Below, piece by piece: positions 3,700 through 47,734 of a DNA stretch of 64,000 nt. Under the pieces are notes generated by a model that saw only the letters and a program-made list of their open reading frames with translations, ran no database searches and was not told the DNA's origin. Each line of letters starts with the position of its first letter. Within the stretch, counting starts at the first letter, position 1. A program made the position numbers and the translations under genes. This DNA is from an uncultured virus (IMG/VR IMGVR_UViG_3300031992_002320). Lineage: Duplodnaviria; Heunggongvirae; Uroviricota; Caudoviricetes. The stretch lies in IMG/VR virus record IMGVR_UViG_3300031992_002320. One strand, 5' to 3'.

Positions 3700-3739
3700 T
3701 TTTGGTATTTGTGTATATTGAGGATTTGGAGGGTTTCTA

Positions 3740-4843: not shown

Positions 4844-4859
4844 TTGAGGAGGTTTCGTT

Positions 4860-5768
4860 ATGAAGAAGAGACTATTGGTAAGTTTTGTGACTGGGTTGAT
4901 GCTCGTCAATATGTTCAGCATGACCGTATTTGCGTCTGGTGGAGATACTGATACAACTCCTACCACGGAGGTTACTACGGAGACCACCACGGAGGATACT
5001 GGTACTTCCACATCCGATGGTTCTGTAGAGAGTATCTTCAAGCCGGTGTCTGATCCCATTGAGATTGGTACTACCGATCCGGGTACTGGTGGTAGTGATA
5101 CTGGTACTACTGTTGATCAGGGTGGTGATACTCTTTCTGGATATGGCATCGATACTGTTCAGCCCATTCACGATGAGAAGGCTGATGCGGTTGCAGCCAA
5201 GATTAAGAAGGTTGGTGGTACTTTGACAACTATCTTCATTGCCTTGCTTATGGCGGGTATGTCGGTAGGGGTTATCATTGACCTTATCTATATTGCAACT
5301 CCCCTTAAGGGATTGCTTGATTCCCTTGCTAACTCTGGTATCTACCTCGTAAGTATGGAGGCATATCAGGCTGCTGGTCAGATGGGTATGGGCCGTGGTC
5401 GTGGTATGGGAGGCAGAGGCATGGGCATGGGCCGTCGTGGTATGATGGGCGGTGGCATGGGCATGGGCATGGGTGCCGGAGGTATGGGCATGGGTGCTGG
5501 TGGCATGGGTATGGGTGCCGGTGGCATGGGCATGGCTGGTGGCATGGGCATGGATCCTATGGCTGGTGGTATGGCTGGTCCTCAGGCGGGTATGCATGGT
5601 GCTGGTGGTGGAGGCGTCAAGATGTATTGCAAGGCGGTTCTCGGTAAGTTCATCCTTGTAGCATTTATGATCGTTCTCTTGTTCAGTGGTTGGGCATTCA
5701 GCCTTGGTGGTATCTTGGCCAACTGGCTTGTAAGCCTTACCTCTAATCTTGGTGGTGGTATTTTATGA
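4860..5768 (+). CDS. Membrane protein, pilin-like paralog 1, with signal peptide and Gly/Met-rich loop
   Basis: Signal peptide ending TVFA; TM-DLIYIATP...LVSMEAYQAA...MYCK-TM pattern shared with 7476 and 8139. Confidence 0.7.
   Translation: MKKRLLVSFVTGLMLVNMFSMTVFASGGDTDTTPTTEVTTETTTEDTGTSTSDGSVESIFKPVSDPIEIGTTDPGTGGSDTGTTVDQGGDTLSGYGIDTVQPIHDEKADAVAAKIKKVGGTLTTIFIALLMAGMSVGVIIDLIYIATPLKGLLDSLANSGIYLVSMEAYQAAGQMGMGRGRGMGGRGMGMGRRGMMGGGMGMGMGAGGMGMGAGGMGMGAGGMGMAGGMGMDPMAGGMAGPQAGMHGAGGGGVKMYCKAVLGKFILVAFMIVLLFSGWAFSLGGILANWLVSLTSNLGGGIL
5382..5580 (+). repeat. Intragenic degenerate repeat encoding (GMGMGAG)n / GRGMG
   Basis: ~21-bp units such as GGCATGGGCATGGGTGCCGGA tandemly repeated around 5454-5550. 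Confidence 0.85.
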
Positions 5769-6076
5769 GTTTGATGTCGGAGTTGTTTCCGTGGTCCTAT
5801 CGAGCTTGGAAGAGTCGTCGTGAGGATCGGAGCCGAGTGGCTCGTAATCGAGATCATGTAGTTAATATGATGGACCAGAGGCGTCATGAGCAGGCCGTGT
5901 TCACTGGTGTGAATGATCTTTGTTTGAAGATATTTCAGTGTTCGGGTACCAAGTTCATTGACCTCTCTGTTCCACCGGAGGATTTCAACATTGTTGTTGG
6001 TATGCTCGCAGGCAATCGGTTCTTGTACAAGGGGCAGATTGTTGGAGATAAAATAAGGTTTTTTAAGGAATTTTGA
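5765..6076 (+). CDS. Hypothetical protein
   Basis: 103 aa ORF overlapping the previous stop (ATGA). Confidence 0.65.
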   Translation: MSLMSELFPWSYRAWKSRREDRSRVARNRDHVVNMMDQRRHEQAVFTGVNDLCLKIFQCSGTKFIDLSVPPEDFNIVVGMLAGNRFLYKGQIVGDKIRFFKEF

Positions 6077-6093
6077 TTTGGGGGTGTTTCTTT

Positions 6094-6339
6094 ATGAGAA
6101 GTGCAGTGATTGAGGGGATAGCTAAGCGTTGTGGTTTACCTAAGACTGTGGTTCGCAAGGTTCTTCAGGCAGAGTTCGATACCTGTGTTGAGTTGCTCGC
6201 CAAGGGTGAGGGTGTCAGCATAAATGGTGTAGGTATCTCTTATCGTAGTGATACTCCACAGGATGCGGGTTCTGCGAAGCGTTTTCGTGCGATGGTCAGT
6301 GATAGACTTCGTTCTGCGGTGCTTGAGCGTACAAAATAA
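6094..6339 (+). CDS. HU/IHF-like DNA-binding protein (divergent)
   Basis: VIEGIAKRCGLPKTVVRKVL...ELLAKGEGVSINGVG matches the HU helix-helix-strand pattern; shortened arm; start moved to ATG 6094. Confidence 0.65.
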   Translation: MRSAVIEGIAKRCGLPKTVVRKVLQAEFDTCVELLAKGEGVSINGVGISYRSDTPQDAGSAKRFRAMVSDRLRSAVLERTK

Positions 6340-6371
6340 AATACTGATTTTGATGATTTGGAGGTTGTGGT

Positions 6372-7460
6372 ATGGGCGTAAGCTACAGTTTTAGGGGTGA
6401 TAGGCTTCTCAATCGTGTTGAGAAGAGGGTTGTGCAGGATCGTGTTCGTCTGTCGAAGGATTTGAGGGACATGATAAAGATGGCGAATAGTAATCGCTGT
6501 TGCTATTGTGGTGATAAGTTCGATGGAGGTACCATCGATCATTTCATTCCTATCGCGCGTGGTGGCTCAAATAATCACGATAACCTCCTACCCGCGTGTG
6601 CGGTTTGTAACGAGGCAAAGGGTTCGCAGGTGTGGGACACGAGTTGTCTTGCGGATAATGTGGACTCTTTGTTCCGTGATGTGGCTCAGGTACGTATAGA
6701 TGACTTCGTGGAGTATAGTCACGGTTTAAATCATTTTAGGGCTTTGGTGTGTGATCGATATTTGTTCGATATTGCGCCACTCATTTTTGTTTTTCCGAAT
6801 GGTCGTAAGGCGGCTTCGAAGGGTGTCAAGCGTAAGGGTTACAAGGTAGCGTTTGAGAGGTGTCAGATTAAGCCGGAGTTCTCTTTGGTGGGGGCATTTC
6901 AGACAGCCTTAGAGAAGCTACATATGTGTGATCATCCGGAGGATGTGCCCGAGAATTATGAGTTTCTGTGTTTGTTCACTGATTTCTTCGCGGTGACAGT
7001 GGATGGGTGTTTGGTTGGTTTCTTTGTTTTACATCCGAGTTGGGATGAGGCGGCTGGGCAGCGTGTATTCAAGGTTAATTGGTATACGCTCACGGCTTCC
7101 GTTACAGGGCTTCAGGGGTTATCTTGTTTGGATGATACTCTGATTTGGACTTTGTTACACGAGCTTGGTGGCTTTGATTATATCGGTTTCGAGTCTGGTG
7201 CGAATGCTGGTGTGGATGGTTTGTTTAAGCAGTGGGAGTATCAGTTTACGCATGATCCTTCCGAGGCAAGCGGTTTTATAGGCATCACACTTGCAGATTT
7301 TAATTATGATGAGCATCCCGATGTATTTAAAGTAGGCGGGACTCAGTTCTTGGAAAACTACTGGGTTTCCGGTGAATGCGAAGCTTGGTGTAAGAAACAT
7401 AAGAATGTGGCATGGATGAAGGATGCGTTTTGTTCCGTGTCACCTAATGTCGGTAAGTAA
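6372..7460 (+). CDS. HNH endonuclease domain protein with unknown C-terminal region
   Basis: CCYCG...TIDHFIPIARGGSNNHDNLLPACAVCNEAKG. Confidence 0.88.
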   Translation: MGVSYSFRGDRLLNRVEKRVVQDRVRLSKDLRDMIKMANSNRCCYCGDKFDGGTIDHFIPIARGGSNNHDNLLPACAVCNEAKGSQVWDTSCLADNVDSLFRDVAQVRIDDFVEYSHGLNHFRALVCDRYLFDIAPLIFVFPNGRKAASKGVKRKGYKVAFERCQIKPEFSLVGAFQTALEKLHMCDHPEDVPENYEFLCLFTDFFAVTVDGCLVGFFVLHPSWDEAAGQRVFKVNWYTLTASVTGLQGLSCLDDTLIWTLLHELGGFDYIGFESGANAGVDGLFKQWEYQFTHDPSEASGFIGITLADFNYDEHPDVFKVGGTQFLENYWVSGECEAWCKKHKNVAWMKDAFCSVSPNVGK

Positions 7461-7475
7461 TTAGGAGGAGCTATT

Positions 7476-8045
7476 ATGAATGCTGTGTATTTAAATTCAA
7501 TGTGTGGCATGTTGCTGACGGGTACTGGGGGTTTGACACCCGATACCGATAAGGCATGGGAGGTTCTGAATCCGGTTGTTGGGCCGTTCAGAATCGTATT
7601 AGGTGTTCTCTGTATCGTGGCTGCGGTTGGTATCGCGCTCTATACAGCGATGGAGATCAGTTACATCTTGTTCCCGGTTCTTCGTTCTGGGACTCCCGGA
7701 GGTGGAGGCCACGGTGGACAGGGTGGTGCCGGAGGCGGTGGTGGTGCCAAGGGTGGCATCGAGAGAATCGTTTCCGAGGAGGCTAAGTATGCTGTTAAGA
7801 CAGCAGAGACCACTCATCAGAATGCTCTCTTGATTTATTTCAAGAAGCGTGCAGTGGCGTATATCATCCTTGGTATGATGCTTGCGCTTTTGATGTCTGG
7901 TGGTATCTACAGCTTGATTTCACTTGGTGGCAAGGCTGGATCTGGTGTAACTCAGATGGTTGATGATTACACAAGTCAGGATGATTCAGGGTTCAATACT
8001 ATCTTCACTCCGGGTGGACAGCAGCAGCAACAGACAGGTCCTTAA
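7476..8045 (+). CDS. Membrane protein, pilin-like paralog 2
   Basis: TM-EISYILFP, Gly-rich loop, IVSEEAKYAV, IYFKKR-TM; strong AGGAGG RBS. Confidence 0.7.
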   Translation: MNAVYLNSMCGMLLTGTGGLTPDTDKAWEVLNPVVGPFRIVLGVLCIVAAVGIALYTAMEISYILFPVLRSGTPGGGGHGGQGGAGGGGGAKGGIERIVSEEAKYAVKTAETTHQNALLIYFKKRAVAYIILGMMLALLMSGGIYSLISLGGKAGSGVTQMVDDYTSQDDSGFNTIFTPGGQQQQQTGP

Positions 8046-8069
8046 CTGAAGATCGGTGGTTTGTTTTTG

Positions 8070-8119
8070 AGGGGACGCAATCTCTGTATTTACATTGATT
8101 GTGTTCCCTTATTTTATTT
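8070..8119 (+). terminator. Rho-independent terminator
   Basis: AGGGGACGCAATC (8070-8082) / GATTGTGTTCCCT (8097-8109) followed by TATTTTATTT. Confidence 0.75.
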
Positions 8120-8138
8120 AGTATTTTGGAGGTCTTTT

Positions 8139-8633
8139 ATGGGGGTAAGTATTGCGGATCAATTGGCTGCCTTCTTGGAGGAGATATCGAATGCATTAGG
8201 GCGAGATAATGGTGGTTTAGGTTATGTTATCTCTGATCATATTGTTGATTGGGGTATTCAGTTTTTGACTGTTTGTGCCTTGGCGCTCAGTTTGTTTATG
8301 GTTGTGCGTGTGGCCGCGGATACTGTTATCTTATCCATACCCGTGGTGCGTTTGGGTTATACAGAGCTTCGTAGTCGTTGGAAGTCCAAGGGTGGTGCCT
8401 TGGGTAAGGTGGTTTCGGCTCGTACCGTTGTTGATGGGGCGCTTAAGGAGTCTGCCACTAAGGGTACGATGACCGCGGGGTTCATCTACTATTTCAAGCA
8501 TATGGTGCCGGCGTTCATTATATGGGGTATATTCCTATCCATCTTTTTCTTCAACACCAATGCTTTCATATGGTTTGGGAATAAGTTCTCCGAGTGGGTT
8601 TATTATAAGTTTCTGCCGTTATTAGGAGGTTGA
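8139..8633 (+). CDS. Membrane protein, pilin-like paralog 3
   Basis: TM-DTVILSIP...VVSA...YYFKH-TM; start moved to ATG 8139 after GGAGG. Confidence 0.65.
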   Translation: MGVSIADQLAAFLEEISNALGRDNGGLGYVISDHIVDWGIQFLTVCALALSLFMVVRVAADTVILSIPVVRLGYTELRSRWKSKGGALGKVVSARTVVDGALKESATKGTMTAGFIYYFKHMVPAFIIWGIFLSIFFFNTNAFIWFGNKFSEWVYYKFLPLLGG

Positions 8634-8634
8634 T

Positions 8635-11574
8635 ATGAGGGGTAAGTTTCGTCGTGTAATATGTGTTCTATTGATATTCGTGATGCTGACCTCTATGACT
8701 GGTTGCGGCATTAAGGGTATCAGTTCAATTTCGACTCTTTCTTCAGGTTTGAGTTCTATTGGTGCCTATATTCTGAACAGTGAGAATGCTACACAGGCCT
8801 CTTTGAAGGGTGTAGGTTTCTATTATACTGCTCAGGCTTTGGTTTCGCCTGATTCTGATTTGTCTGTGCATCTTACTGGTATTGGTATGTCAGATGAGCA
8901 GGAGGCTGCTTTTACGACTTTGATTTCCAATTATGATTCTGCCGTGATTGGTACTACTGGGATTGTAAGGCGTGTTGAGTTGACCGTTACCACGGATAAT
9001 AAAGGTAGTGAGAAGGATTATTATCTTGGGCCGTCAGATGGTACTGATTCACCCGATTCGATGAGTGATATCAAGCTTGAGGAGAAGAAGGATGATCTCG
9101 AGGATGAATTTGATGTTCGTGGCATTATGCTGAATGATGATGGATATGGGCTTCCGTCTTTAATATCTACAATTGCCAAGGGATCCTCGTTGGATAAGGA
9201 TGATAAAGACTATATGCTCTCTGCTGCCGGGCCTGCGACTATGTATACGGGTTGGGATGGGGATGCTGATAGTGATTTCTTGTATAGAAAGTTCGAGGTT
9301 GGTGATCCGGTAGGTTTCAATATCTTTGGGGATTCACGAGAGGGTTCTGTAGGTGACTTACAGGTGCTTTCTGCGAATGCCGATATGGGTACGGTAGAGG
9401 AGCAGGTGGGCAGTGCCATTGATCAGTATAAGTTGGATGGTCAGAACATAGATCCGGCGTATGCAACTTGGACAAGTTCATTTGTATCGTCGGGTGTTCG
9501 TCTGATGCCTCCGGGGGTTTCGATGGTTTGTACCTCGCTTGTGCCGCGTGTTTCGGATGGTGATTTGATTGATACCCTTAATAGTGATTTCGTGCCGGGG
9601 CGTGTAGGTCTTGTTGTTGATGATAAGACGCATGAGCCGGCTGTTATTACATCTTTATATGGGCCTAACCCTTTGGTTGTTAATGCTATGGCGCGTGGGT
9701 TAACCTTGGGTGAGACTGGTACTTTCCTTTTGTTCAATGGTAAGACCTATCTTATGAGTTATCCGGTTTATACGTTGGGTGGTTTCTACAGTGATGACAG
9801 TGGCAATGTAACTGTAATGCTTTCCCCGGCGTGCATGAGATATTCGCTCATCACGCATGGTGTTAGTTATTTCAAGAATGGTGTTTGGGGTTCTCCGTTT
9901 GGTCTCAAGGGCACTGATGAGGTTGTAGATCCTAACTATGTCGACTTCAACTTGGTGGGTGGCATTGGTGATTCACTCCGTCAGGTGGGTTCTTGTAATA
10001 TGTTCGTGGGCATGGATGATAAGGAGGTTTCGTCATTCAAGGATGGTTGGGAGGCCTTGTTTACGGATTATTATGTGCCCGTGGATAGGGAGATTGATAA
10101 GGCGGAGCATTATAATTCTTTCTTTGATAGTTTTACTTATAGTGGGTTTGCCTCATATAGTGATGCGGGTAAGTTGGCATTGTTGGGGAAGGATCCGAAT
10201 ACCACAATTCTCCCCACATGGGATGAGTATTCATCTGGGGATGCTTTTACTGAGTATGTGGAGAATTTGAGTACCAACTGTGATACGGGTAAGGTGCCGA
10301 GGTTGGTGCTCTGTGATTATGTTGAGGGTACATTCTTGCCGGGGGTTGCTACGGGGGGTTACTCCGAGCATCTTTGTGTTACTGGCCGTAAGATAAGGTT
10401 GTCCGATACCATCTTTGGTGGGGCTACTACTGTTAATGGTGATCAGTATGCCTTGAATGTTGTACCGTGTGCAACGACTGTAATCGGGCACTATATCTCG
10501 ATTGATGGTTCTGTTCTGGAGAGTGTGTATCTTGGGGATATCTGTGATGTGCCAGCGCTTACTGGTAGTTCTTATCTGACTCTTGGGAGTGCGCCTACGG
10601 TGGCTGGATTTGGGCATAACAGTTTGCAGGTTAGTACCTCATCCAATGGGGTTTCTGCCACGGCCACGATTGTTGATTTGTTGGATCCGTCGTGTGCCAC
10701 GATTAGTTCTTCTGATCGATATGTTGATAGGCTCTGTGTGGATAGTGGCTGTATACCGAATTTGACAACTCTTACGGTACCGACGGTGGTTCAGCTTTCC
10801 AATGTTCAGGGGATGGCTGATGGTTTCTATGGATCCGTTGTGAGTTTGGCGGATATAACACAGGATACGAGGATTACGGAGCTGTCATATTTGAGCAGCA
10901 ATTTCATTCGACCTGTTGTTGGTTTGCCGGGAACCTATACAGAGGATGTCAGTGCCGAGGATCGTACATGTATGTCGATGTATGTTCTTGGGGTTGCCAC
11001 GGGTGTTTCGAAGTCTAATTTCTATGCATATGCTTCGGGTGTTGGTGCCAAGGATTCCTTGTATTGGTGGGATAATTATCTCCATTATTGGGGGTTCGGT
11101 TATTCCGTGAAGATTGATACCGTTGTTAATTACATCAAGACCAACTATAGCTTTTATGTGACCGCCGATACTTGGAGACCGGGGGATTATCTCGATGAGC
11201 TTGAGTATTGGACAACTGAGCTTAAGGGTGGTAAGGCTGCCGAGAGGCTTGTAGATGTCTTACATGTAGTCTCGTTGATTCTTGGTGTTTTGATGATGTT
11301 GTATGCGGCGCTTCTGTTGTTCGCATGGTTCTGGGATGTAGTGGGTAGTTCGGACACGAACCTTTACTATAAGGTTTCATTCCCCCATAAGCGTGCCGTG
11401 GAGAAGAAGTCTGGTGTTAAGGGGCAGCTTGAGCAGACATTGGCGGGTGCGATATGGACCTCGGTTAAGTGGTTCTTGGTTGGCTTTGCGATTTATTCCA
11501 TAGGTTTGGTTTATGTTCTTATAGTGCTGCTCAAGTTTGTAGTTATAGCGTTAAGATTCTTTGGTCTTGGATGA
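8635..11574 (+). CDS. Large lipoprotein-like protein with C-terminal transmembrane helices
   Basis: Lipobox-like MTGC; ~850 aa predicted extracellular region; hydrophobic helices at the C-terminus. Confidence 0.75.
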   Translation: MRGKFRRVICVLLIFVMLTSMTGCGIKGISSISTLSSGLSSIGAYILNSENATQASLKGVGFYYTAQALVSPDSDLSVHLTGIGMSDEQEAAFTTLISNYDSAVIGTTGIVRRVELTVTTDNKGSEKDYYLGPSDGTDSPDSMSDIKLEEKKDDLEDEFDVRGIMLNDDGYGLPSLISTIAKGSSLDKDDKDYMLSAAGPATMYTGWDGDADSDFLYRKFEVGDPVGFNIFGDSREGSVGDLQVLSANADMGTVEEQVGSAIDQYKLDGQNIDPAYATWTSSFVSSGVRLMPPGVSMVCTSLVPRVSDGDLIDTLNSDFVPGRVGLVVDDKTHEPAVITSLYGPNPLVVNAMARGLTLGETGTFLLFNGKTYLMSYPVYTLGGFYSDDSGNVTVMLSPACMRYSLITHGVSYFKNGVWGSPFGLKGTDEVVDPNYVDFNLVGGIGDSLRQVGSCNMFVGMDDKEVSSFKDGWEALFTDYYVPVDREIDKAEHYNSFFDSFTYSGFASYSDAGKLALLGKDPNTTILPTWDEYSSGDAFTEYVENLSTNCDTGKVPRLVLCDYVEGTFLPGVATGGYSEHLCVTGRKIRLSDTIFGGATTVNGDQYALNVVPCATTVIGHYISIDGSVLESVYLGDICDVPALTGSSYLTLGSAPTVAGFGHNSLQVSTSSNGVSATATIVDLLDPSCATISSSDRYVDRLCVDSGCIPNLTTLTVPTVVQLSNVQGMADGFYGSVVSLADITQDTRITELSYLSSNFIRPVVGLPGTYTEDVSAEDRTCMSMYVLGVATGVSKSNFYAYASGVGAKDSLYWWDNYLHYWGFGYSVKIDTVVNYIKTNYSFYVTADTWRPGDYLDELEYWTTELKGGKAAERLVDVLHVVSLILGVLMMLYAALLLFAWFWDVVGSSDTNLYYKVSFPHKRAVEKKSGVKGQLEQTLAGAIWTSVKWFLVGFAIYSIGLVYVLIVLLKFVVIALRFFGLG

Positions 11575-11584
11575 GGTGTTTAAT

Positions 11585-14500
11585 ATGAGATTTGAGGGTT
11601 TTTTGAAGAAGATTACTTCGGGTAAGTTCCGCAGATTTGTGTGTGCCACATTATCTGCGGTGCTTTTGGTAGGATCTTTATCTTTGTATGTTCTTGCGGG
11701 TGGCACGGGGCAGACTCGTAATACCTATTTGGGTACTGCGGTTGCTGTGGGTTCACCCATTCTTAATCCGGATTTCTCCACTGATAATTGGAATCCGTAT
11801 GAGATGGAGGTTTGGGGGATTTACTTATCCAACTTTGTAAGGCCTCTGCAGGATACTTATGAGTCCGCTTTTACGAATGGTGGTCCGGGTGTTACGGCAT
11901 TGGAGATAGGCTCCGGGAATAATCCGGATAGTAATGCCTATCTGAAGGTTTTGCTCAATTATGCTGTTACCACTCAGAAGCAGAGTTTATCGGATTTGTA
12001 TGTGGGGTTCGTTGCTGATGGTGGAAGTGCAAATCAGATTTATTCTTCCCCGGATTCGGCGAATTCGACTGGTGTGTTTGCTCATGCTCACTTGTACGAC
12101 TTATACTGTTGTGGTTTGATAGTCGGGTGTGATGATGGGGTGCTTCAGTACAGTGATGATAAGAAGTTCGTGGATGGTACTACTCATGGTGGTGCTGCCA
12201 AGGATTCCGTTTTGAATTATGATTTGTTCTTGCAGGATTATCATGTTGTGTTCTTCAAAGAGGTCAAGGGTGAGAAGAAGGTTATGTTCGATACTTCGAG
12301 CCGATATGACCTTGATATGCTCAACAGCATGCTCGTTATGTACGGGTATTCCAATTCGGTATTTGGGGATGCTTTCATAGCCAATAGAGACGGTGTTATC
12401 AGATGTGATCCATTTGGTAACTTTGTTCTTAATGATGGGACTATGGTATTTCCGGCGGCGTGCAATTCTCATTTCCTTGCTGGAGGTGTTCATAACTACC
12501 TGAATTCGGTGGTTGTGAATGGTTTTACCTCTGTTGCGGATCCTTGTGTTAATGGTAAGGGGCCTAATGATACAGCGAGTGCTTATTTCAGAGGTTTGGC
12601 GGATACGAGTTGGCGTAATAATATCTTGAGTGAGAGTTTCCCTTGTTCCTATGACGGTAAGGTTCATGGTTGTTTTTATCAGAGTTCTATGGACTGGTAT
12701 TTTACCTCCGAGGGACAGTCCTTTTTGAGTGAGCACCCGGCGGAGTCCACTTGGCAGGCTACACGTGCCATAGCGGAGAGTTCCGTAGGGGATGGTAATT
12801 TGGTGGTGCCGGTTCGTTTTGCGGTGCCTGTGCCCTTGACGGAGTGTCAAAAGATCGGTGAAACCAAGATATCAAGTTTGCTGTCAAATGGGAATTTTAT
12901 CTGGTGTATTGCTCCGCAGATTAATAATAGTATGGTGGGGTACCATTTTTGGAATTCAGAGGATTTGACAGCCCGTGCGGTAGATGAGATTGTGTATCCT
13001 AATGGTGGTACAACTAATCTGTTTACTACCATTGATGATGGTTGTTTTAGACTCACGGATAGTCAGGTTTGGGTAGCGGATGGTATTGGGCCAGATGGTA
13101 TAGATGATGATGGTTTTAATACTGCGGATGCCACAAATCTGATGTTTGGTTTATCTGCGAGGGCTTATGTTCGTGCAATGCGTGGAGAGACCTTGCAGGG
13201 TGTGGATAGCAGCCGTGCGGCGTACTATGATGCCTTGATGTCTACTGGTGATGGTGATTATTGCTGGGGTGATGACATGGGGGATATCAAGTTTGAGTAC
13301 ATGGGTGCCATCACGGGTTCGAAGAAGGGTGTGACTTGGTATGCATCACAGTACAATGGTGGAAATAATTCATCACGTGGTGATGTTCCGCAGTCTTATC
13401 ATACTATGTGGAAGTGTTTCTGGTTTGATGATAATACCTCTGCATCTATCCGTAGCATGGCTTCATGTTTCGGTGGTACACAGTATGGGGCTTTTGGTGA
13501 GGCGTGTGCCGAGCTATATGTGAGTTATCTTTCAGCGTTTGGAATTGGCAAGGATCAGGATTCCTATGGTACTGCAATTTCCATTTCTGATTTTGATGAG
13601 AATTTCTTTTCCGCTGGGGTTCTGTTACAAGATCAGACCGTATTTAATGGTGCGGGAGCGGGTGAGACTGATGCGGATAAGTTAGGTCGACTTCGTAATA
13701 ATCTGAATCTCTATATGGATCCCAAGGCGGGTGCTGAGTATCGTGCTTCTCTTATGACTAATCAGTTCAAGGAATGGTGTTATAGTCTTTACAGTTCACT
13801 CGTTGGTCGTGATGAGGGCAAGCAGAGTTCTTCAGCGGGTGGTTTCTTACTGCCGTCTGTGGCGGAGAGTCCGCTGTTGTCCTTTATATTGGATCATTGG
13901 TTTATCGTGTTCGGTGTGGTGCTTCTGCTTGTTATTGGGTTTTCCATTTATAGTGCAGGGGTTAATCATAAGGCATGGTACTGGGTTGTTATGTCCGTGG
14001 CGTTTAGTGGGGTTCTGCTTGTCATTATCCCTAATCTTGCACGAGGTACAATCTTGGGTGTTAACTCGGCGGGTGGTGCCTTGCTGGCCCCGGATATGAG
14101 TTTATGGGTAGCCGAGGAGATTGTGGATATTCGTGCGTTGGAGGTTGGTGCTGTTGATAATTATGGTGATGATGCTGACTCACAGCTTGAGGCTACGGGT
14201 AATTTGGATATGATGCTCCGTAGTGATGCCGTTCAGACGATTCGAATTGATCAGGATATCTTCAGTAAGCATAATGTTACCGTTGAGGGCATCTATAAGG
14301 ATGTTGCGATGGGGAACTATTTGTCCGCTATGTGGGTTGTGCCGGCTCTGCTCAACAGCCGTACCAAGGTTGATGATAAGGGTAATTATAGTGCGGATAA
14401 GGGCTTCTATACTTTGATGTCGGAGTGTGAGACCATCTATTGGCAGTATCATCCCGAAAATGTGTTTGATAGTTACACGATTTCGAGTTTGAGTGCTATG

Positions 14501-16999: not shown

Positions 17000-17023
17000 T
17001 ATTGAATTTGTGGTGTTGATAAT

Positions 17024-17057
17024 GAGAACCTCCCACATAGTCTGGGGGGTTCTCTTA
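17024..17057 (+). terminator. Hairpin / probable terminator
   Basis: GAGAACCTCCCA (17024-17035) / TGGGGGGTTCTC (17043-17054); weak U-tract. Confidence 0.65.
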
Positions 17058-17075
17058 TGTGTGGAGGTGTATAAA

Positions 17076-17321
17076 ATGGGGTTATTCAGTAAATATGGTG
17101 ATGTTGAAAGGCGGGGCTGGACCGTAGATAAGAAGCGTCATTTGGTGTATGTGAAGACCGAGTTCTTATCTATGGTGGAGGGTTTCTTCAAGGATGCCGC
17201 TGGTGATTATGAACTTGTTGAGTATGTTGGGGGTTCGGGCATCACGGCTAAATATCAGCGTAGGTACTGTTCAGCAGCTACCCTAAATGGGAATGTTATC
17301 CCGATGTTAAAGAGCCTCTGA
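17076..17321 (+). CDS. Hypothetical protein (81 aa)
   Basis: GGAGGTG RBS before ATG 17076. Confidence 0.7.
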   Translation: MGLFSKYGDVERRGWTVDKKRHLVYVKTEFLSMVEGFFKDAAGDYELVEYVGGSGITAKYQRRYCSAATLNGNVIPMLKSL

Positions 17322-17336
17322 TGGGGGCTCTCTTTT
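17311..17336 (+). terminator. Rho-independent terminator
   Basis: AGAGCCTC / GGGGCTCT stem followed by CTTTT. Confidence 0.65.
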
Positions 17337-17399
17337 GTTCTGTTATTGTGGACTGGTTTCGGTTGTATTCTCTATGAGATTGTTTGTAAGGAGGCTATT

Positions 17400-17651
17400 A
17401 TGAAGGAATTTAAGATCGATTTGTGTGGTATTGATAAGGTTAAGGCGTTTGCGAGACTTACATCTTCGGAGTGTGAGGGTGGTGTGTCTATTCATAGCGG
17501 CAGATGGGTTATTGATGGGAAGTCAATTATGGGAATCTTCTCTCTTGATCTTTCCAAGCCGGTGCATGTGTTCTTTGATTCGGAAGAGGATGGTTTGAAG
17601 TTATACAACACGCTTGTGGCTGATGGCTTCAAGATTGAGACTGTGGAGTGA
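17400..17651 (+). CDS. HPr-family protein lacking His15
   Basis: SGRWVIDGKSIMGIFSLDLSKP (Ser46 motif); GID where HPr has GIH/GLH; AGGAGG RBS before ATG 17400. Confidence 0.8.
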   Translation: MKEFKIDLCGIDKVKAFARLTSSECEGGVSIHSGRWVIDGKSIMGIFSLDLSKPVHVFFDSEEDGLKLYNTLVADGFKIETVE

Positions 17652-17657
17652 TAGTTT

Positions 17658-18758: not shown

Positions 18759-18785
18759 ATTGACTATGTTGAGGAGGTTGAGTAT

Positions 18786-20579
18786 ATGATTAGTGTTCTA
18801 ATTGGGCTTTCAGAGTCGAAGGCGGAGCAGATTCGTGGTGTCATTGGTAAGGACATGGAGTTCCACTCCTATCCGAATCTGAATGCCTTTTTTGCCGATT
18901 CGAAGCGTTTTCGTGAGCTTGATAAATTGTTCTTATGGGATTCGATTTCCGTGGGTACGAGGCCTGAGGTTTCAGATGCTTTAGCAAGGCTTGCTGGTAT
19001 CTGTGCAAATCTCTATCATGCCCCGGAGGTGTGTTTTGTTGAGCAGGATCGTTCGGCGTGTGCCTTTGTGCATGAGAATACTCTCAATGTTGAGCACCAT
19101 ATGATCGTGTGTTGTGGTGGGTTGAATGATATGATGCCCATCCTTGGTGCTTTCTTCACCAAGTCTTTGAGTAGTCTTGAGACTTCGGGAGTTATACATG
19201 GTGTTTATACTGCTGCCGATTATCAGAAGGATATGGAGGCCATAACTCTTACCGCGGATTTCGAGGGCATGGATGAGTTCGAGATGTCTGGTGGTAGTGG
19301 TGCTTCTGGTGGGGCTGATGCATTTGATCCGAATGACTTATTCGGTGGTGATGATGATTTTGGCAGTGCTGGTAGTGCTGCAACTGCAAGTGAGCCGGAT
19401 GAGTTTGATATGGCTGGTATGTTCGAGGATGTTCCGCCACAGGCTTCTGATGAGTCCGTTCCCGGTGGGGGTGCTGGTGGCTTCGATGAGTTCGATGCGG
19501 CCGATAATGGTCCTGCTGTTGGTGGTGGATTTGGTGGTGATGAGTTTGAGGTTACACAACAGCCTGTGTTTGAGGATGTGCCTCCGGTGAGTGCCGCGCC
19601 CGTTGGTGGGGATGAGTTCTCTGCTGTTGGGGCTTCTGCACAGCCGACTGAGATATCCTTTGATATGCCTACGGGTGAGGTACCGATGCAGGAGGAGGCT
19701 ACGGTCACCCCGGATCCTACCTCTCGTAGTGGCAAGGATTTGATGAAGGGCCTTAAGACTCTTACCCATTCACAGGGGCGTGCGATAGCGGTGTGTGGTA
19801 CGGCTGATTCGGGTACTACTACCGTTGCTTATAATATGGGTGTTGTTCTTGCCGGTTTGGGCTTTAGGGTTCTTCTGGTGGATCTTACGGGTAGTTCCCA
19901 CGGTTTGTCACAGATAAGCCTTGATGGTTTCCGTATGATTCCGTATGACAGCATGGTTGTTCGTAACCTTATTCAGGGTGGTCTTACCTCCATCGGTAAG
20001 CCTATGGTTGTTCGCAAGAACTTGGCCATAGCTTGTTGTGGTGTTGGTGTGGATCCATATAATGTGGCCGAGATTTATACTGAGCAGCAGTTGTACAAGG
20101 TTCACAATCAGTTGGCAAGTAAGTTTGATTTCATCATTTACGATATGGATCTGAAGGATGTGTTGAGCTTTTATAAGGGCTTTGCCGTTGTTGGTGATAC
20201 GGTATGTACCTTTAAGGGTTCCATGTCGGGTGCCATGCATATGATGTGTGAGTTTGGTAATGCGGATGACCTTGATACCTCCGAGCTTATCTTGCAGAGT
20301 GCGAGGTTCTTACCTACACAGGTAGTTGATGCTACTTGGTCTTTGGGAGGAGCCATCGTGCATGGTCGTAAGGTATCTCTTAAGGGTGTGGATACCATCC
20401 TTGATGAGATTCTCGGTGGTGAGAGTGATTTCGATTTCAATGCGGTTTCATTGTTACCCACATTCGTTTATGATCCGATGGTGGTGCGTAGTGAGTGCAC
20501 CAAGAAGGCTTATGTAGAGACTTCGAAGGATGCGATGAACTACTTTATGTCTGTTGTTGGGGAGGTCACAGGATGTTAA
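18786..20579 (+). CDS. ParA/MinD/CpaE-like P-loop protein with degenerate Walker A
   Basis: AIAVCGTADSGTTTVAYNMG...GFRVLLVDL and KFDFIIYD; N-terminal alpha/beta domain; long acidic DEF-rich linker. Confidence 0.7.
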   Translation: MISVLIGLSESKAEQIRGVIGKDMEFHSYPNLNAFFADSKRFRELDKLFLWDSISVGTRPEVSDALARLAGICANLYHAPEVCFVEQDRSACAFVHENTLNVEHHMIVCCGGLNDMMPILGAFFTKSLSSLETSGVIHGVYTAADYQKDMEAITLTADFEGMDEFEMSGGSGASGGADAFDPNDLFGGDDDFGSAGSAATASEPDEFDMAGMFEDVPPQASDESVPGGGAGGFDEFDAADNGPAVGGGFGGDEFEVTQQPVFEDVPPVSAAPVGGDEFSAVGASAQPTEISFDMPTGEVPMQEEATVTPDPTSRSGKDLMKGLKTLTHSQGRAIAVCGTADSGTTTVAYNMGVVLAGLGFRVLLVDLTGSSHGLSQISLDGFRMIPYDSMVVRNLIQGGLTSIGKPMVVRKNLAIACCGVGVDPYNVAEIYTEQQLYKVHNQLASKFDFIIYDMDLKDVLSFYKGFAVVGDTVCTFKGSMSGAMHMMCEFGNADDLDTSELILQSARFLPTQVVDATWSLGGAIVHGRKVSLKGVDTILDEILGGESDFDFNAVSLLPTFVYDPMVVRSECTKKAYVETSKDAMNYFMSVVGEVTGC

Positions 20580-21979
20580 TTCATAGTGATTTTGTATCTT
20601 CATGGCGTGATATTGGGGAGGTTGATGACACAGTTGTGTTTGACCTCTCTGGTGATGTTAGTGGGGATGATGAAGTTGGATATTTGGATCTCTTGGACGA
20701 GTTGATTCGTGAGGATGGGCTTCGTACATTCATCTTGGAGCATCCGGATGTAAATTATATGCTTTTGTTTGATGACAATTGTTCATTCAAGCTTAGTCCT
20801 TGGGCTGGGTATGCTCTGTGGTGTTTGTGGTACGAGTGTATTCTCAAGCAGAGACTCCATCTCGGCGGGATTAAGGTTCAGCGTGGCAATGATGTGTTGG
20901 ATTTGCCTTTGGCTGGGTTCAAGTTGTTCTTTGGGGACTTCTGTCGTGCCCTTATGTATTGTGTGAATGCCGGGGGTACTGAGGGGCTTATCGTTATGAG
21001 TCCTTTGGTTTATGGATCCCGTGAGACTCTTGATATCTTGAGTGGTTGCATCGTGGATGCTATGTCTGGTGGTGTTGCCATCGAGACCGAGGATTGGGGT
21101 GATAGTGCGAATGCTCGTAGCCTTGAGACCGAGGTCAGCCGCCTTGAGGATCAGTTGACTGGTTTGAAGTCTGATTATGAGAGCAAGGAGCGTGGTTACC
21201 TTGCGAAGATAGAATCGATGCAGAGGGAGCTTGAGGTGGCCACGAGCAGTCGTAGTGTCACGGTGTTCAGTGAGGCCTCTGGAACCCCTTATCACAGCCT
21301 GCAGTTTGGTTCTGTTATGGGTGTGCGTGTTGGTTCGGTTGTTTATATCAAGGAGCTTAGCAATGTCAGGGGTGTTAATTCCGCTTTGTGGGCTGCGATG
21401 TTCAAGCTCAGCCGTGTGAATGTTCCTTATCGTTTCATCATCTATGATTCAGATAGTTTCATTCAGGGTAGGTATGGTGATACCCCGGTATATAAGTTCT
21501 CTGATTTCAGTGCGAATGCGGAGATGATTCTTTCCAAGCCGGGATTTGTTATGCAGGATCCGGTTCTTGTACCTCTTGAGAGGTTGCTTCAGGAGGATGT
21601 GCGTGTGTTGTTCGTAATCGATAGACTCCATTATGCGGATGATATGATTATCGGTTCTGGTGTTGATCGTTATGTAACTGTCAACACGGGTGGTGATTAT
21701 GCCGCTGCAACTGGGGTTCTCGGTGTGAATGTGGATGAGATTATCACCACATCCGATTGTTCGGCTCTTGGTGCCAAGGATGTGCGTGAGCACTCTCATG
21801 CGATTATCTTGACCGAGAATAATATCTTGAAGCGTGACCGTACCAATCTTGGTATGGGGCATAAGGAGCTTGGTGATAATCCTTACTTCACTAAGGTTTG
21901 TGCGTCGATTATGAATCAGGGGCGTGCGAAGGGTAAATCCCTTGTTGATGTGTTCTTGAGTAGTGTTGGGGGTGTCTAA
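20573..21979 (+). CDS. Hypothetical protein with central coiled coil
   Basis: LETEVSRLEDQLTGLKSDYESKE...; start moved to ATG 20573 after GGAGG. Confidence 0.75.
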   Translation: MLIHSDFVSSWRDIGEVDDTVVFDLSGDVSGDDEVGYLDLLDELIREDGLRTFILEHPDVNYMLLFDDNCSFKLSPWAGYALWCLWYECILKQRLHLGGIKVQRGNDVLDLPLAGFKLFFGDFCRALMYCVNAGGTEGLIVMSPLVYGSRETLDILSGCIVDAMSGGVAIETEDWGDSANARSLETEVSRLEDQLTGLKSDYESKERGYLAKIESMQRELEVATSSRSVTVFSEASGTPYHSLQFGSVMGVRVGSVVYIKELSNVRGVNSALWAAMFKLSRVNVPYRFIIYDSDSFIQGRYGDTPVYKFSDFSANAEMILSKPGFVMQDPVLVPLERLLQEDVRVLFVIDRLHYADDMIIGSGVDRYVTVNTGGDYAAATGVLGVNVDEIITTSDCSALGAKDVREHSHAIILTENNILKRDRTNLGMGHKELGDNPYFTKVCASIMNQGRAKGKSLVDVFLSSVGGV

Positions 21980-26459: not shown

Positions 26460-26470
26460 GGAGGTTTGTT

Positions 26471-26848
26471 ATGGATGCTTCTTTGAAGAAGATGGTCAGG
26501 GAGCTGGTGTTGAGAGGTCTTACCCTTGTTGATTATGGTTGGTCTGATGTTCGTAAGGGACAGGTGCAGGATATGAGTTTTAAGTATAAGGTCGATGATA
26601 ATCCCGATGTCCATGAGATTGAGCTTGGAGATGTGGATGTGGATCTCTACGAGGATTGTGGGGATGTCTGTGTGGATTTCGGGGATAACTTGTATATGCT
26701 GGATCCTATGGGTACTGGTGTTGTGGACTTCTTCGAGGATTTCGAGGCTGATAAGCCGGGAATTCAGCTTAAGGATATCGAGCCCATTCATATCGAGTTT
26801 GATGTGGATGAGTTCTATTCCAAGTTAATGGATTACTACGAGTATTGA
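26471..26848 (+). CDS. Small acidic hypothetical protein
   Basis: AGGAGG RBS; 125 aa, Asp-rich. Confidence 0.75.
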   Translation: MDASLKKMVRELVLRGLTLVDYGWSDVRKGQVQDMSFKYKVDDNPDVHEIELGDVDVDLYEDCGDVCVDFGDNLYMLDPMGTGVVDFFEDFEADKPGIQLKDIEPIHIEFDVDEFYSKLMDYYEY

Positions 26849-26931
26849 TGTGTGTTGCATAGTGGTACTCGTGATGTATTTTGTTGTATCTATAATGGGC
26901 TTATTGTGAGTCCTTTGTGTGGAGGTGTTTT

Positions 26932-29160
26932 ATGAAATTTAGGCGTTTGATGCGTGGGGGTGTGGTACCCGTAGTCTTGTCGATGTCCTTGCTCTTATCT
27001 GGGTGTGGGGTTTCGTATAAGGACACAACACCACAGAGTGCTTTTATGTCTCGATATGAGGCGTTGAATAATGGTAATCTTTCGGCTGGTGACGATGGTT
27101 GGCACAGGACCTTTGCTACGCAGTCTCTTGGGCTTAAGCCATATACAGGGGATACTACAGACTTGGATAACTATGTAGGTCTCTTGGAGGGTTTGCTCGC
27201 TGGAGAGGATGCCAACCTCAGTTCGCTTGTTATGGCTGACAGTGTAGCGGAGAGTTTCCGTTATATCTTGGATCGTTTCAAGCTCACAAATGGTACCACT
27301 GTGTCTTATGAGTGTGTGGGTGATATCTACAGAGTTACACGAACCTATGATGGTAGTAAGTGTACTCAGATGGAGTTCCCGGATGGCATCGAGTATTGTG
27401 CATTGCCGGGTTATTACAGACAGTTGGCTGATGGTCGTTGGTATCGTGATGACCTTATGGCGGTTCTCTGTGTGGGTGCCATGAATGCTTACTGTGTGGA
27501 AAATCAGATCACGAAGCAGTTCTCCTTTGATGTGGAGACTGGTTCTTTGTTGATTACGGATGGTGTTCCGCGTGAGGTTTCCATTCAGCTTCGTGCTGAT
27601 GGTCGTGGTTTCATCTATGATGGTCAGGAGGTTGAGGTTCAGACCACAATCGATATCACTGATTTCATCACGGTTGTGGATGATGGTGCTGATGAAGGCG
27701 AGGAGGGTGATTCAGCCTCTGAAGATGAGGCTGATGTTGCCGATGCTGATGATGGTGGTACCGATGGTGGAACAGGATCTGATATCTCTATGGGTGTAAC
27801 AGACCTCGTAGAGCTTTCTTATGATGATTATAAGGCTTTCATCAATAAGGTTACCGATAGTGGTGGTACGGTGTTGAATACCTTTAAGGATATTCCGGTT
27901 GATGAGCGTATACCTGAGGATTCAAGGCTTACTGTTCCTATCAGTGCGATTTTGGATGTTGTAGGTATTCCGAGTGGTTCTATTAGTACCGCGAATACTG
28001 ACATCTTCGATGAGGTTGATAGTTTCGGTGGTAGGGGTTGTGTTGCTGGGGCTGGTACCTATGCAATCGATTCTCTTGTGAAGGGTGCTTATTCACCCGA
28101 TGCCAAGGTGGTAGTTGACTATTATCTCCGCCGTACCGATTCTGGTTTCGAGACTATCGGTGTTCTCGTTAATGGTTATGACTGTGGTGTTGCTCAGACC
28201 ATTGATAATATGGATTCTGTAGCTTGTTCTGGTGTTGTGTGGGATGCCATCAGAGAGATTTGTATGGAGAGTGACAGGGCATTTACAAACCTCGATTTGA
28301 TTTCCATCGGTGATGGTAGTATCTACTTGGACAAGGGTTATCTTGCTAAGGCCGTCTTTGGTAAAGAGGGTATGATAATGCGTGAGACTCTCACCACACC
28401 TCAGAGGGTTATCGCCTTTGATTCGGCTACTGCGACTTATGTTGTTGCGGCGGACAGAACATTCGCTTCTTGTGATATGGATGGTGGTTGTGTAGGCCGT
28501 TATTCCGAGGATATGCTTATTGCTATCCGTTTCTTTGATGACGGACCTCGTATCGTTGATGAGTATGGGTATGATTTCAATCTCGTTGGTGATCCTTACA
28601 TAAGTATCATGAGTTATGCTGATATCGTTGATGAGGGACTTTGGAGATATTCTGCAGAGGTTGATGATGAGGCCAAGGAGGGTATCAAGGAGCTTCTTAC
28701 CATCTTCTATCAGGCTCAGAATGATAAGGTTATGTCGGTTTCCACTGCCGAGGATGCGGAGAGGCTTGGATATTCTCTTGGTATCAAGACCGTGTTCCTT
28801 GATGGTGATCCATTACTTTCTGCGGATCAGCGTGATTTGTTCGTAGATCACATAGTTGATCGTATTACATACAGTGGTGGCAAGAGTGTGGTTGCTGGTA
28901 ACATCGTTTCCTATATGGGCTCTACTGGAACCTATGTGGATGTTATGGTTGATGATACCTATGATTACGGCACATTCAGTATTACGGATACCGTGGTTTA
29001 CTCGTTTGTGAACACTGCCGAGGGTTGGCGTATCTGTGATATGGATATTATTAACACCGAGAAGGTGTTCCGTGATGGTACGGTTGCGGCTTCTACTGGT
29101 ACGGGTACTGCATCGCAGAATGCGGCGCCCGAGGCCACAGAGTCACCCGAAGGTAACTAA
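26932..29160 (+). CDS. Large lipoprotein, possible NTF2-like (VirB8/TcpC-like) C-terminal domains
   Basis: Lipobox LSGC; C-terminal strands ending DDGPRIVD and AEGWRICD; fold is inference. Confidence 0.65.
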   Translation: MKFRRLMRGGVVPVVLSMSLLLSGCGVSYKDTTPQSAFMSRYEALNNGNLSAGDDGWHRTFATQSLGLKPYTGDTTDLDNYVGLLEGLLAGEDANLSSLVMADSVAESFRYILDRFKLTNGTTVSYECVGDIYRVTRTYDGSKCTQMEFPDGIEYCALPGYYRQLADGRWYRDDLMAVLCVGAMNAYCVENQITKQFSFDVETGSLLITDGVPREVSIQLRADGRGFIYDGQEVEVQTTIDITDFITVVDDGADEGEEGDSASEDEADVADADDGGTDGGTGSDISMGVTDLVELSYDDYKAFINKVTDSGGTVLNTFKDIPVDERIPEDSRLTVPISAILDVVGIPSGSISTANTDIFDEVDSFGGRGCVAGAGTYAIDSLVKGAYSPDAKVVVDYYLRRTDSGFETIGVLVNGYDCGVAQTIDNMDSVACSGVVWDAIREICMESDRAFTNLDLISIGDGSIYLDKGYLAKAVFGKEGMIMRETLTTPQRVIAFDSATATYVVAADRTFASCDMDGGCVGRYSEDMLIAIRFFDDGPRIVDEYGYDFNLVGDPYISIMSYADIVDEGLWRYSAEVDDEAKEGIKELLTIFYQAQNDKVMSVSTAEDAERLGYSLGIKTVFLDGDPLLSADQRDLFVDHIVDRITYSGGKSVVAGNIVSYMGSTGTYVDVMVDDTYDYGTFSITDTVVYSFVNTAEGWRICDMDIINTEKVFRDGTVAASTGTGTASQNAAPEATESPEGN

Positions 29161-47721: not shown

Positions 47722-47734
47722 GTGAGGTGAGCGT

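Follow-up and report, generated by a model that had tools for sequence, protein, structure and literature searches.

Results

Layout of the gene cluster

We describe a gene cluster at about 7.5–29.2 kb of a 64-kb stretch of DNA (the window) from the uncultured virus record IMGVR_UViG_3300031992_002320, filed in IMG/VR under Caudoviricetes. The cluster encodes a VirB4-like ATPase, an FtsK-like ATPase, a giant membrane protein and several further membrane, surface and cytoplasmic proteins (Table 1). It is homologous to, and colinear with, the tip locus of the Bacillus plasmid pXO16, and it probably encodes a conjugative DNA-transfer machine of that type.

The survey of open reading frames (ORFs) covered the 64-kb window, which is a partial view of a larger replicon. 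Only the + strand is coding, with 54 non-overlapping ORFs occupying 96% of the window, and no tRNA genes were found in the 64 kb. Neighbouring genes between 4860 and 29160 are separated by −14 to +27 nt with three exceptions, namely 169 nt 5' of the FtsK-like gene, 68 nt 5' of the downstream lipoprotein gene, and a nominal overlap of −85 nt at the coiled-coil gene that disappears when a later start is used. The base composition is G 31%, T 33%, A 20% and C 16% (64% G+T on the coding strand), with a GC skew of +0.23 to +0.42 in each 2-kb bin and an AT skew of about −0.24. Positive GC skew of the coding strand is common to all relatives including pXO16; the strong excess of T over A is found in the window alone. 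GC content is 47% in the window and 34% in pXO16.

A preliminary description of this DNA, made from the letters alone, had assigned the whole interval 4860–29160 to a conjugation-like apparatus. All of the genes that it listed were found, on the + strand and closely packed. The part from about 7.5 to 29.2 kb is the probable apparatus; the first four genes (4860–7460) are not counted as part of it. Its VirB4-like ATPase with a WEE Walker B motif was confirmed, with intact motifs and a family profile that leads to a VirB4 structure, as was its FtsK-family ATPase without a gamma domain, which has a single motor domain. The two-transmembrane (2-TM) protein corresponds to the 366-amino acid (aa) protein with a transmembrane (TM) hairpin. 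The degenerate ParA/CpaE-like protein is supported by its fold and lacks the Walker A lysines, the coiled-coil protein matches only coiled coils in the PDB, and the 742-aa lipoprotein has a lipobox. The weakest item was the pair of 'pilin-like paralogs': these two small proteins show weak mutual similarity and have two TM segments each, and the match of the first to a T4SS_pilin model lies below its cut-off.

Table 1. Predicted genes of the cluster, followed by small and neighbouring genes (window positions)
Feature	Position	Strand	Evidence or detail	Remark
Small 2-TM protein, 189 aa	7476..8045	+	TM 40-58, 126-144	Gly-rich loop
Second small 2-TM protein, 190 aa	8061..8633	+	TM 61-79, 148-166	
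Lipoprotein, 979 aa	8635..11574	+	lipobox LTSMTGC; TM 878-896, 955-973	large extracytoplasmic domain
Giant polytopic membrane protein, 1812 aa (TTG 11561) or 1804 aa (ATG 11585)	11561..16999	+		
TM hairpin plus cytoplasmic alpha/beta domain protein, 366 aa	17658..18758	+		
Receiver-like plus ParA/MinD-fold protein, 597 aa	18786..20579	+		
Coiled-coil cytoplasmic protein, 468 aa (ATG 20573)	20573..21979	+		ORF opens 20495
VirB4-like ATPase, 656 aa	21980..23950	+	intact Walker A and B	
FtsK-like membrane-anchored ATPase, 779 aa	24120..26459	+	PF01580 E 2.7e-12, 47 bits (cut-off 24)	
Surface lipoprotein, 747 aa (GTG) or 742 aa (ATG 26932)	26917..29160	+	lipobox LLLSGC	
Two small ORFs, 103 and 101 aa	17010..17651	+		likelier 81 and 83 aa from internal ATGs
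Acidic protein, 125 aa	26471..26848	+	no family match	no homologues in related loci
Clamp-loader-like AAA+ ATPase	3740..4843	+	PF13177 E 1e-21; phrog_5846 E 5e-41	synteny marker beside the apparatus
Membrane protein, 302 aa	4860..5768	+	hydropathy scan	3 hydrophobic segments
ORF, 103 aa	5765..6076	+		
HU-like DNA-binding protein	6073..6339	+	PF00216 E 3.8e-5, 24.3 bits (cut-off 22.4)	
HNH endonuclease	6372..7460	+	PF01844 E 7.8e-11; phrog_2118 E 1e-18	
SNF2-family helicase	30880..32442	+	PF00176, PF00271	conserved downstream neighbour, outside the interval
ParB-N plus HNH nuclease	38200..39795	+	PF01844 E 5e-9, weak ParB_N	backbone gene, outside the interval

The VirB4-like and FtsK-like ATPases

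The VirB4-like protein carries a Walker A motif GKTGSGKS and a Walker B motif ending KIWEEFQ, and has the C-terminal ATPase domain with both motifs by which the VirB4 superfamily is recognised in the broad sense. As a single sequence it scored 24.4 bits (E 8e-6) against NF045971 of NCBIfam (CD1110-type VirB4; cut-off 325) and 24 bits (E 8e-6) against TIGR02746 (TraC; cut-off 567); it had no match in Pfam, and none in a single-sequence search of the PDB at E<=1. A word-based search returned 13 relatives of 26–44% identity together with a near-identical copy, all from metagenomic sources. The family profile built from the alignment of 14 sequences had as its top PDB match the VirB4 C-domain structure 4AG5 (E 5e-8, the second match being at 0.028), and when the 14 members were compared with Pfam, AAA_10 was matched by 12, DUF87 by 11 and P-loop_TraG by six. 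Residues G282-K283-S284 and E527-E528, a DYEGDEY stretch and an RKR stretch are invariant in all 14. When the profile was run against 1.84 billion cluster representatives it reached 853 at E<=0.001, with 196 at E<=1e-30 that were mostly full-length (640–720 aa). The bulk of VirB4 proteins therefore lies beyond the reach of the profile, and the family is, as judged from sequence, a distinct one of modest size, well apart from most VirB4 proteins.

The FtsK-like protein consists of a hydrophobic N-terminal region, an acidic linker and one motor domain. The motor match stops about 30 residues short of the C-terminus and there is no Ftsk_gamma match, so that a gamma domain is absent. Its PDB matches were EccC5 (E 1.3e-6), FtsK (7e-5) and the pCW3-type coupling protein 6o1w (3e-3), and against NCBIfam it matched EssC (TIGR03928) at E 7e-14 with 50.3 bits (cut-off 778), over one ATPase domain. 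We consider it a candidate coupling protein or DNA pump.

Membrane, surface and scaffold proteins

The two small 2-TM proteins resemble each other with a BLASTP E of 0.001 (25% identity over 117 aa), and the first of them has a sub-threshold match to T4SS_pilin (PF18895; E 0.039, 14.5 bits, cut-off 26.6). The 979-aa lipoprotein that follows has no hydrolase domain in Pfam, PHROG or NCBIfam. G003, a complete related element described below, encodes at the corresponding position a homologue of like size (985 aa, E 4e-8), which bears choline-binding-type wall-binding repeats, a stretch that the window protein lacks. The 'endolysin' label given by PHROG to this homologue is attributable to the repeats, there being no catalytic domain. 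The comparison suggests that the 979/985-aa protein makes contact with the cell wall and has been adapted from host to host. The giant protein had no Pfam, PHROG or NCBIfam match and a single, near-identical match (98% identity) in the word-based search; a hydropathy scan shows two large extracytoplasmic regions, at least six TM segments and a Gly/Ser-rich tail. In 12 other loci a homologous ORF precedes the VirB4-like gene (E 1e-7 to 1e-46). The surface lipoprotein at the far end of the cluster belongs to a family found in six gut-type loci, and such lineage-specific lipoproteins are likely to be host-contact parts.

Iterated hidden Markov models (HMMs) found the 366-aa family in 13 loci including pXO16. 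An AlphaFold2 model from a 12-sequence alignment had a mean predicted local distance difference test score (pLDDT) of 58, with a core at residues 35-263 of about 75. The top ten Foldseek matches of this model in the PDB were all chains of the R388 type IV secretion system (T4SS)/TrwK (E 9e-4 to 1.3e-2), and VIA-align superposed it on residues 13-211 of TrwK with Z 9.4 and a root-mean-square deviation (rmsd) of 5.3 over 164 aligned residues. A structure search independent of Foldseek gave the ESX-5 chain 7b9f_E (Z 8.6, rmsd 2.6, 103 aligned) and, at the same level, TrwK (Z 7.9, 158 aligned), with ferredoxin-like folds at Z<=7; a VirB8/TcpC-type fold was not among the top rows of the fold search. 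Both leading matches are subunits of membrane complexes in secretion machines. With Z values in this middling range, a role as membrane anchor of the ATPase complex, whether VirB3 plus VirB4-N-domain-like or resembling an ESX-5 subunit, is suggestive at most.

The 597-aa protein was modelled (pLDDT 56.5) as a (beta-alpha)5 receiver-like N-domain, an acidic disordered linker of about 180 residues and a ParA/MinD-fold C-domain. The C-domain matched ParA/MinD/FlhG in Foldseek at E 2e-7, with 243 matches at E<=0.001, and the profile of the family, which is present in nine loci, matched a bacterial tyrosine kinase (BY-kinase; 6e-11), Soj (3e-6) and also MinD in the PDB; the single sequence reached only AAA_31 in Pfam (E 0.002). 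In place of a Walker A motif the window protein has CGTADSGTTT and the family consensus GCGGCGTST, neither with a lysine, and the protein is therefore probably a scaffold instead of an ATPase. The stop of the adjoining coiled-coil gene abuts the start of the VirB4-like gene; its start at 20573 corresponds to residue 27 of the longer ORF, where the record in the ESM Atlas begins. This family occurs in 11 loci and its PDB matches are coiled coils only; a search of the ESM Atlas gave no usable match. A possible identity as a second ParA-like protein was rejected, as hhalign against the 597-aa family gave a probability of 0.1%, in line with the PDB result.

Colinearity with the tip locus of pXO16

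The plasmid pXO16 resides in Bacillus thuringiensis sv. israelensis. The passages devoted to it in two reviews ascribe conjugation to the tip (transfer of israelensis plasmid) locus, of 25 kb and 16 coding sequences (PMC9673590), which was delimited in 2018 from bioinformatic and experimental data, was called a novel type of T4SS, and encodes two ATPases and the cell-wall hydrolase TipB (PMC9673590; PMC6199540). By these accounts neither a relaxase nor an origin of transfer (oriT) has been identified (PMC9673590; PMC6199540). Single-stranded DNA is transferred by a mechanism that is described as distantly related to T4SSs and likened to that of pCW3 (PMC6199540), and conjugation is linked to aggregation and can carry along 'non-mobilisable' plasmids as well as chromosomal segments of at least 791 kb (PMC9673590).

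Searches with the window proteins led to this plasmid. In a tblastn search of 72,556 plasmids, the VirB4-like protein matched 55 records, 52 from Bacillus and three from Paenibacillus, the best being ten records of the ~350-kb plasmid pXO16/pBTHD789-1 (NC_018516; E 7e-44, 92% coverage); pXO16 records were also best for the FtsK-like protein. Eight genes of the cluster and its flanks have homologues on pXO16 in conserved order, and a ninth, HU-like gene occupies the matching relative place, the pXO16 ORF being a weak member of its family (PF00216 E 5.6e-4, below cut-off). By blastp, the VirB4-like proteins match at E 2e-50 (25% identity over 636 aa), the FtsK-like proteins (779 and 776 aa) at E 7e-26, and the giant protein matches a pXO16 protein of 1834 aa at E 9e-9. 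The first small 2-TM protein is similar to three pXO16 paralogues (E 4e-7, 3e-5 and 3e-4). At the flanks, the clamp loader has a counterpart in the same relative position (E 8e-37) and the SNF2 helicase is similar to a SNF2/DEAD helicase of pXO16 (E 2e-27). More remote relationships were obtained by profile methods: iterated HMMs place a 445-aa pXO16 ORF in the 366-aa family, the coiled-coil family aligns with a 412-aa ORF just upstream of the pXO16 VirB4-like gene (hhalign 97%, E 3.5e-11), and the N-domain of the 597-aa protein connects through an intermediate group to a 306-aa ORF (hhalign 86% and 96%).

The likeness to tip thus extends to the VirB4-like, FtsK-like, ~1800-aa, 2-TM, hairpin, coiled-coil and receiver-like N-domain proteins and to homologous clamp-loader and SNF2 flanks, and includes the placing of all genes on one strand, the positive GC skew and the absence of a known canonical relaxase. 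The loci differ in that the receiver-like protein of the window carries a fused ParA/MinD-fold domain, in the inverted arrangement of the giant protein relative to its large neighbour, and in host clade, the relatives of the window being of gut Clostridia type. A 710-aa ORF of pXO16 has a weak NlpC/P60 match and no similarity to the 979-aa or 747-aa proteins of the window; our guess is that it is TipB.

Related elements in metagenomes

The VirB4-like family profile detected 11 loci in IMG/VR contigs of 26–284 kb classed as viruses and, in genome assemblies, four stretches, two in a Lachnospiraceae metagenome-assembled genome (MAG) and two in a Clostridia bacterium; a near-identical window protein is encoded on a 162-kb contig. 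Gene order (giant, hairpin, 597-type, coiled-coil, VirB4-like, FtsK-like, with the lipoprotein and/or helicase in some loci) is kept in the 11 IMG/VR loci, in one contig of the Lachnospiraceae MAG and in the complete G003.

G003 has 264,603 bp (45% GC) with a 55-bp terminal overlap and is therefore circular. Its 228 non-overlapping ORFs, all on the + strand, occupy 92% of the sequence, and the GC skew is +0.27 to +0.35 in each 20-kb bin, its sign being constant round the whole circle; such a switch-free skew is compatible with replication in one direction only, or with one strand being single-stranded much of the time. Similarity to the window includes the 2-TM protein (E 2e-6) and the clamp loader (E 3e-39), which occupies the corresponding relative place. 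A PHROG scan of 189 of the 228 ORFs (those of fewer than 130 aa or crossing chunk ends were left out) identified a replication set consisting of a PolIII-alpha-like polymerase, clamp loader, primase, DnaB-like and Dda-like helicases, topoisomerase II and ligase, and further RecJ, RuvC, RNA ligase/polynucleotide kinase, a partition ATPase and transposases. No capsid, portal, terminase, connector, sheath or tube family was found among these 189 ORFs, and the only 'tail' or 'head' labels were due to lysin or peptidase domains and to a P-loop trace in the VirB4-like protein.

Five near-complete relatives, G003 among them, are IMG/VR contigs of 180–284 kb with a CheckV completeness of 89–100%, two of them with terminal repeats and one filed as a provirus. 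They were tested with single Pfam models, the only test applied to the four other than G003, and controls in known genomes matched every time. None of the five matched Terminase_6N (PF03237) over its cut-off, Phage_capsid (PF05065) or Phage_portal (PF04860), none matched the relaxase families PF03432, PF01076, PF02486, PF03389 and PF08751, and none matched the tyrosine recombinase family PF00589. In the window there was no capsid, portal or large terminase PHROG, and tblastn of the VirB4-like protein against 50,697 phage records gave no match. Since none of these virion families was matched in the relatives, they look like giant plasmids with a phage-like replication module and not like phages; the 180–284 kb 'virus' contigs in IMG/VR have probably been entered as huge phages although they are giant plasmids.

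Flanking genes and other features of the window

The SNF2 helicase gene is also found downstream of the FtsK-like gene in six other loci and in G003. The ParB-N/HNH nuclease has homologues in G003 (E 1.6e-57) and pXO16 (E 6e-18), and also in ~140-kb plasmids of Bacillus subtilis/velezensis from fermented foods. Among the four genes upstream of the cluster, the 302-aa membrane protein had no Pfam, PHROG or NCBIfam match. A YdjM-family membrane protein is encoded near this position in pXO16 and in G003; BLASTP showed no similarity between the window protein and that of G003, and it was rejected as a counterpart. For the HNH endonuclease no homologous pair was found between the window and G003, and this is probably an inserted or accessory gene.

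Inside the cluster, the two small ORFs 3' of the giant gene have no homologues in related loci, and the second (17400-17651, 83 aa) shows a faint, non-significant resemblance to the region of the HPr phosphorylation site (PF00381 E 0.11). Strong stem-loops lie at 17024-17054 (12 pairs) and 17311-17331 (9 pairs), 3' of the giant gene and of the next small ORF respectively, and a promoter-like site at 16996-17023 stands beside them. Together, the stem-loops and this site may mark a boundary of transcription units within the cluster; over 3500-23400, promoter-like and terminator-like sites numbered 33 and 19, against 33.1 and 20.7 in shuffled sequences, and were not in excess.

A C5-cytosine methyltransferase and a Dam-type N6-adenine methyltransferase (a partial domain match), at 2845-3699 and 29217-30134, bracket the cluster, and G003 likewise encodes several methyltransferases. 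Towards the far end of the window (45865-51560 and 61617-62573) there are two paralogue-like proteins of ~617 aa matching the DUF2201_N metallopeptidase family/phrog_1314, an ATPase (phrog_1297) and a MoxR-type AAA_5 ATPase. Two of these far-end proteins have G003 homologues directly 3' of the G003 helicase gene, and the genes may form a conserved VWA/MoxR-like module. A 1423-aa protein (52874-57145) gave a sub-threshold esterase hint (PF00756 E 8e-4) and matched no further family.

Discussion

The explanation that we consider likely is a tip-type conjugative DNA-transfer machine, encoded between about 7.5 and 29.2 kb and carried by a large, capsid-less, plasmid-like element with its genes on one strand and a gut Clostridia-type host. 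The preliminary description had proposed a highly divergent conjugation-type apparatus pairing a VirB4-like with an FtsK-like ATPase, and this is borne out by scores far below those demanded by standard VirB4/T4SS models. It had also proposed an undescribed T4SS subtype. That part does not stand, because the cluster is homologous to and colinear with the pXO16 tip locus, a machine already described between 2015 and 2018. The cluster appears instead to be a distant gene-for-gene variant of a described, poorly understood machine, in another host clade and with parts gained and lost.

Several points weigh against this reading. Identity between window and pXO16 proteins is 19–26%, and it is the sole basis for ascribing transfer to the cluster. 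The 979-aa and 742/747-aa lipoproteins and the small ORFs gave hhalign probabilities of <1% against pXO16 ORFs, and the ParA-like domain of the 597-aa protein is without a detectable pXO16 counterpart. No cell-wall hydrolase family was found in any window protein by Pfam, PHROG or NCBIfam, whereas pXO16 has TipB. As matches of the FtsK-like protein, type VII EssC/EccC models outscore both FtsK and the pCW3 coupling protein. In the structure search independent of Foldseek, the 366-aa model aligned best with a type VII (ESX-5) chain, tied with VirB4, and Z values of about 8–9 can also be attained by unrelated folds. PHROG matches are lacking for about 60% of G003 ORFs, which leaves room for a very divergent virion module.

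The cluster can be compared with better known systems. It resembles the pCW3 Tcp and Tn916-type systems of the MPF_FA (mating-pair formation) class in joining a VirB4-family ATPase to an FtsK-like coupling ATPase that has a single domain and a membrane anchor, and the FtsK-like protein matches the structure 6o1w of the pCW3-type coupling protein. Unlike those systems it has no TcpC/VirB8-like, TcpH/VirB6-like, hydrolase or relaxase family recognised by Pfam, PHROG or NCBIfam in the window, its subunits are much larger, and the VirB4 model scores are far below the cut-offs. The TrwM/VirB3–TrwK/VirB4 pair of R388 offers a parallel for the 366-aa protein, the alpha/beta domain of which aligns with the N-terminal ~200 residues of TrwK and is preceded by a TM hairpin as in the topology of VirB3. 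Here, however, hairpin and domain have a gene of their own, three positions upstream of the ATPase gene, and the similarity is structural only, at 7–8% identity and middling significance, with the ESX-5 chain scoring equally. TadZ/CpaE proteins consist of a receiver-like N-domain and a ParA/MinD-fold domain. The 597-aa protein shares this plan with TadZ/CpaE and, in its fold, with VirC1-type proteins; it differs in lacking both Walker A lysines, in its long acidic linker, and in having BY-kinases as the nearest solved relatives of its family by sequence. No Tad ATPase (TadA/CpaF), prepilin peptidase or Flp pilin was matched by Pfam among the 53 window ORFs scanned, a search that divergent forms could escape.

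The type VII-like matches raise the question of whether the cluster might export proteins and not DNA, as a secretion machine related to type VII (ESX/Ess) or a hybrid with a type VII-like FtsK ATPase. EssC and EccC5 are the nearest named matches of the FtsK-like protein, the ESX-5 chain 7b9f_E heads the Foldseek-independent list for the 366-aa model, and a giant membrane protein with a large external domain presumably resembles the type VIIb EsaA/YueB topology. Set against these, EssC is matched at 50 bits with a cut-off of 778 and by one ATPase domain, not three, and no WXG100-type family appeared in Pfam scans of the window. The VirB4-like ATPase, a type IV hallmark, is the best-conserved gene of the cluster, and the homologous pXO16 locus is a conjugation locus in the accounts that the reviews give of it (PMC9673590; PMC6199540). 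We therefore think protein secretion unlikely.

We give less weight again to a giant phage in which the cluster would serve virion assembly, DNA packaging or delivery of DNA across a membrane. FtsK/HerA-type ATPases do package DNA in membrane-containing phages, and the relatives of the window are filed in IMG/VR, are near-complete by CheckV and have phage-like replication genes (clamp loader, DnaB-like and Dda-like helicases, primase, topoisomerase II and ligase). In the pages of one review that treat pXO16, the single orientation of its coding sequences is likewise mentioned as having once hinted at a phage-like nature; the same pages state that no plaques have ever been obtained (PMC6199540). 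The phage reading is further opposed by the lack of any VirB4-like match in the phage records, of PHROG virion families in G003, and of terminase, capsid or portal models in all five relatives.

MPF_FA/FATA systems pair VirB4 with an FtsK-like coupling protein, and the window is part of a larger replicon, as the near-identical protein on the 162-kb contig illustrates; an ordinary, fast-evolving system of the Tn916/pCW3/ICEBs1 kind with its relaxase and oriT beyond the window is nevertheless the least probable of the alternatives, as the VirB4-like protein has 24 bits where the CD1110-type cut-off is 325, the profile reaches so few representatives, and none of the five relatives matches the five relaxase families or PF00589.

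The same results bear on two other statements of the preliminary description. It had named good scores to a standard MPF_FA/FATA model, together with a canonical relaxase nearby, as one ground for giving up its proposal, and the VirB4-like protein stays at 24.4 of 325 and 24 of 567 bits, under both thresholds. It had recognised no relaxase motif, and none was recognised in the window ORFs by Pfam and PHROG scans; its suggestion that a relaxase might lie just outside the window is unlikely, because the five relatives and pXO16 are without a recognisable one.

The workings of the proposed tip-type machine can be sketched, with every step drawn from homology. An envelope-spanning channel and the contact at the cell surface would be formed by the giant protein together with the small 2-TM proteins and the 979-aa lipoprotein, whose two TM segments lie near its C-terminus. 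The 366-aa hairpin protein would hold the VirB4-like ATPase, presumed hexameric, at the membrane, while placement or scaffolding of the assembly would fall to the coiled-coil protein and the receiver-ParA/MinD pseudo-ATPase. DNA would be handed over and pumped by the membrane-anchored FtsK-like ATPase in the role of coupling protein. Nicking and unwinding would proceed without a canonical relaxase; speculative candidates for this work are the SNF2 helicase, as a possible DNA-processing partner, and the ParB-N/HNH nuclease, as the missing nicking enzyme.

A search of the open-access literature returned Bacillus-centred papers only, and none that linked pXO16 to gut or metagenomic relatives. The present comparison places pXO16 within a broad family of one-strand giant elements. 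Its machine has so far been known from a single plasmid lineage, and the gut relatives add comparative leverage: the parts likely, from their distribution across loci, to form the family-wide core are the two ATPases, the 2-TM family and the giant, hairpin and coiled-coil proteins, and the SNF2 helicase and ParB-HNH nuclease are conserved too, as neighbouring or backbone genes. As a tentative extension, which we would call possible and no more, these elements may constitute a widespread, unnamed lineage of capsid-less giant elements of about 180–350 kb in gut Firmicutes, with one-strand genes and a replisome of their own, of which pXO16 is the sole studied member, and which transfer independently of a relaxase through the VirB4-like/FtsK-like machine with non-HUH processing, perhaps by the ParB-N/HNH nuclease and the SNF2 helicase. 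If so, DNA would be processed for conjugation by a distinct mechanism, and databases would be miscounting such elements as huge phages. Very large 'viral' contigs of IMG/VR can be conjugative and plasmid-like, which bears on huge-phage diversity and on estimates of gene flow in the gut.

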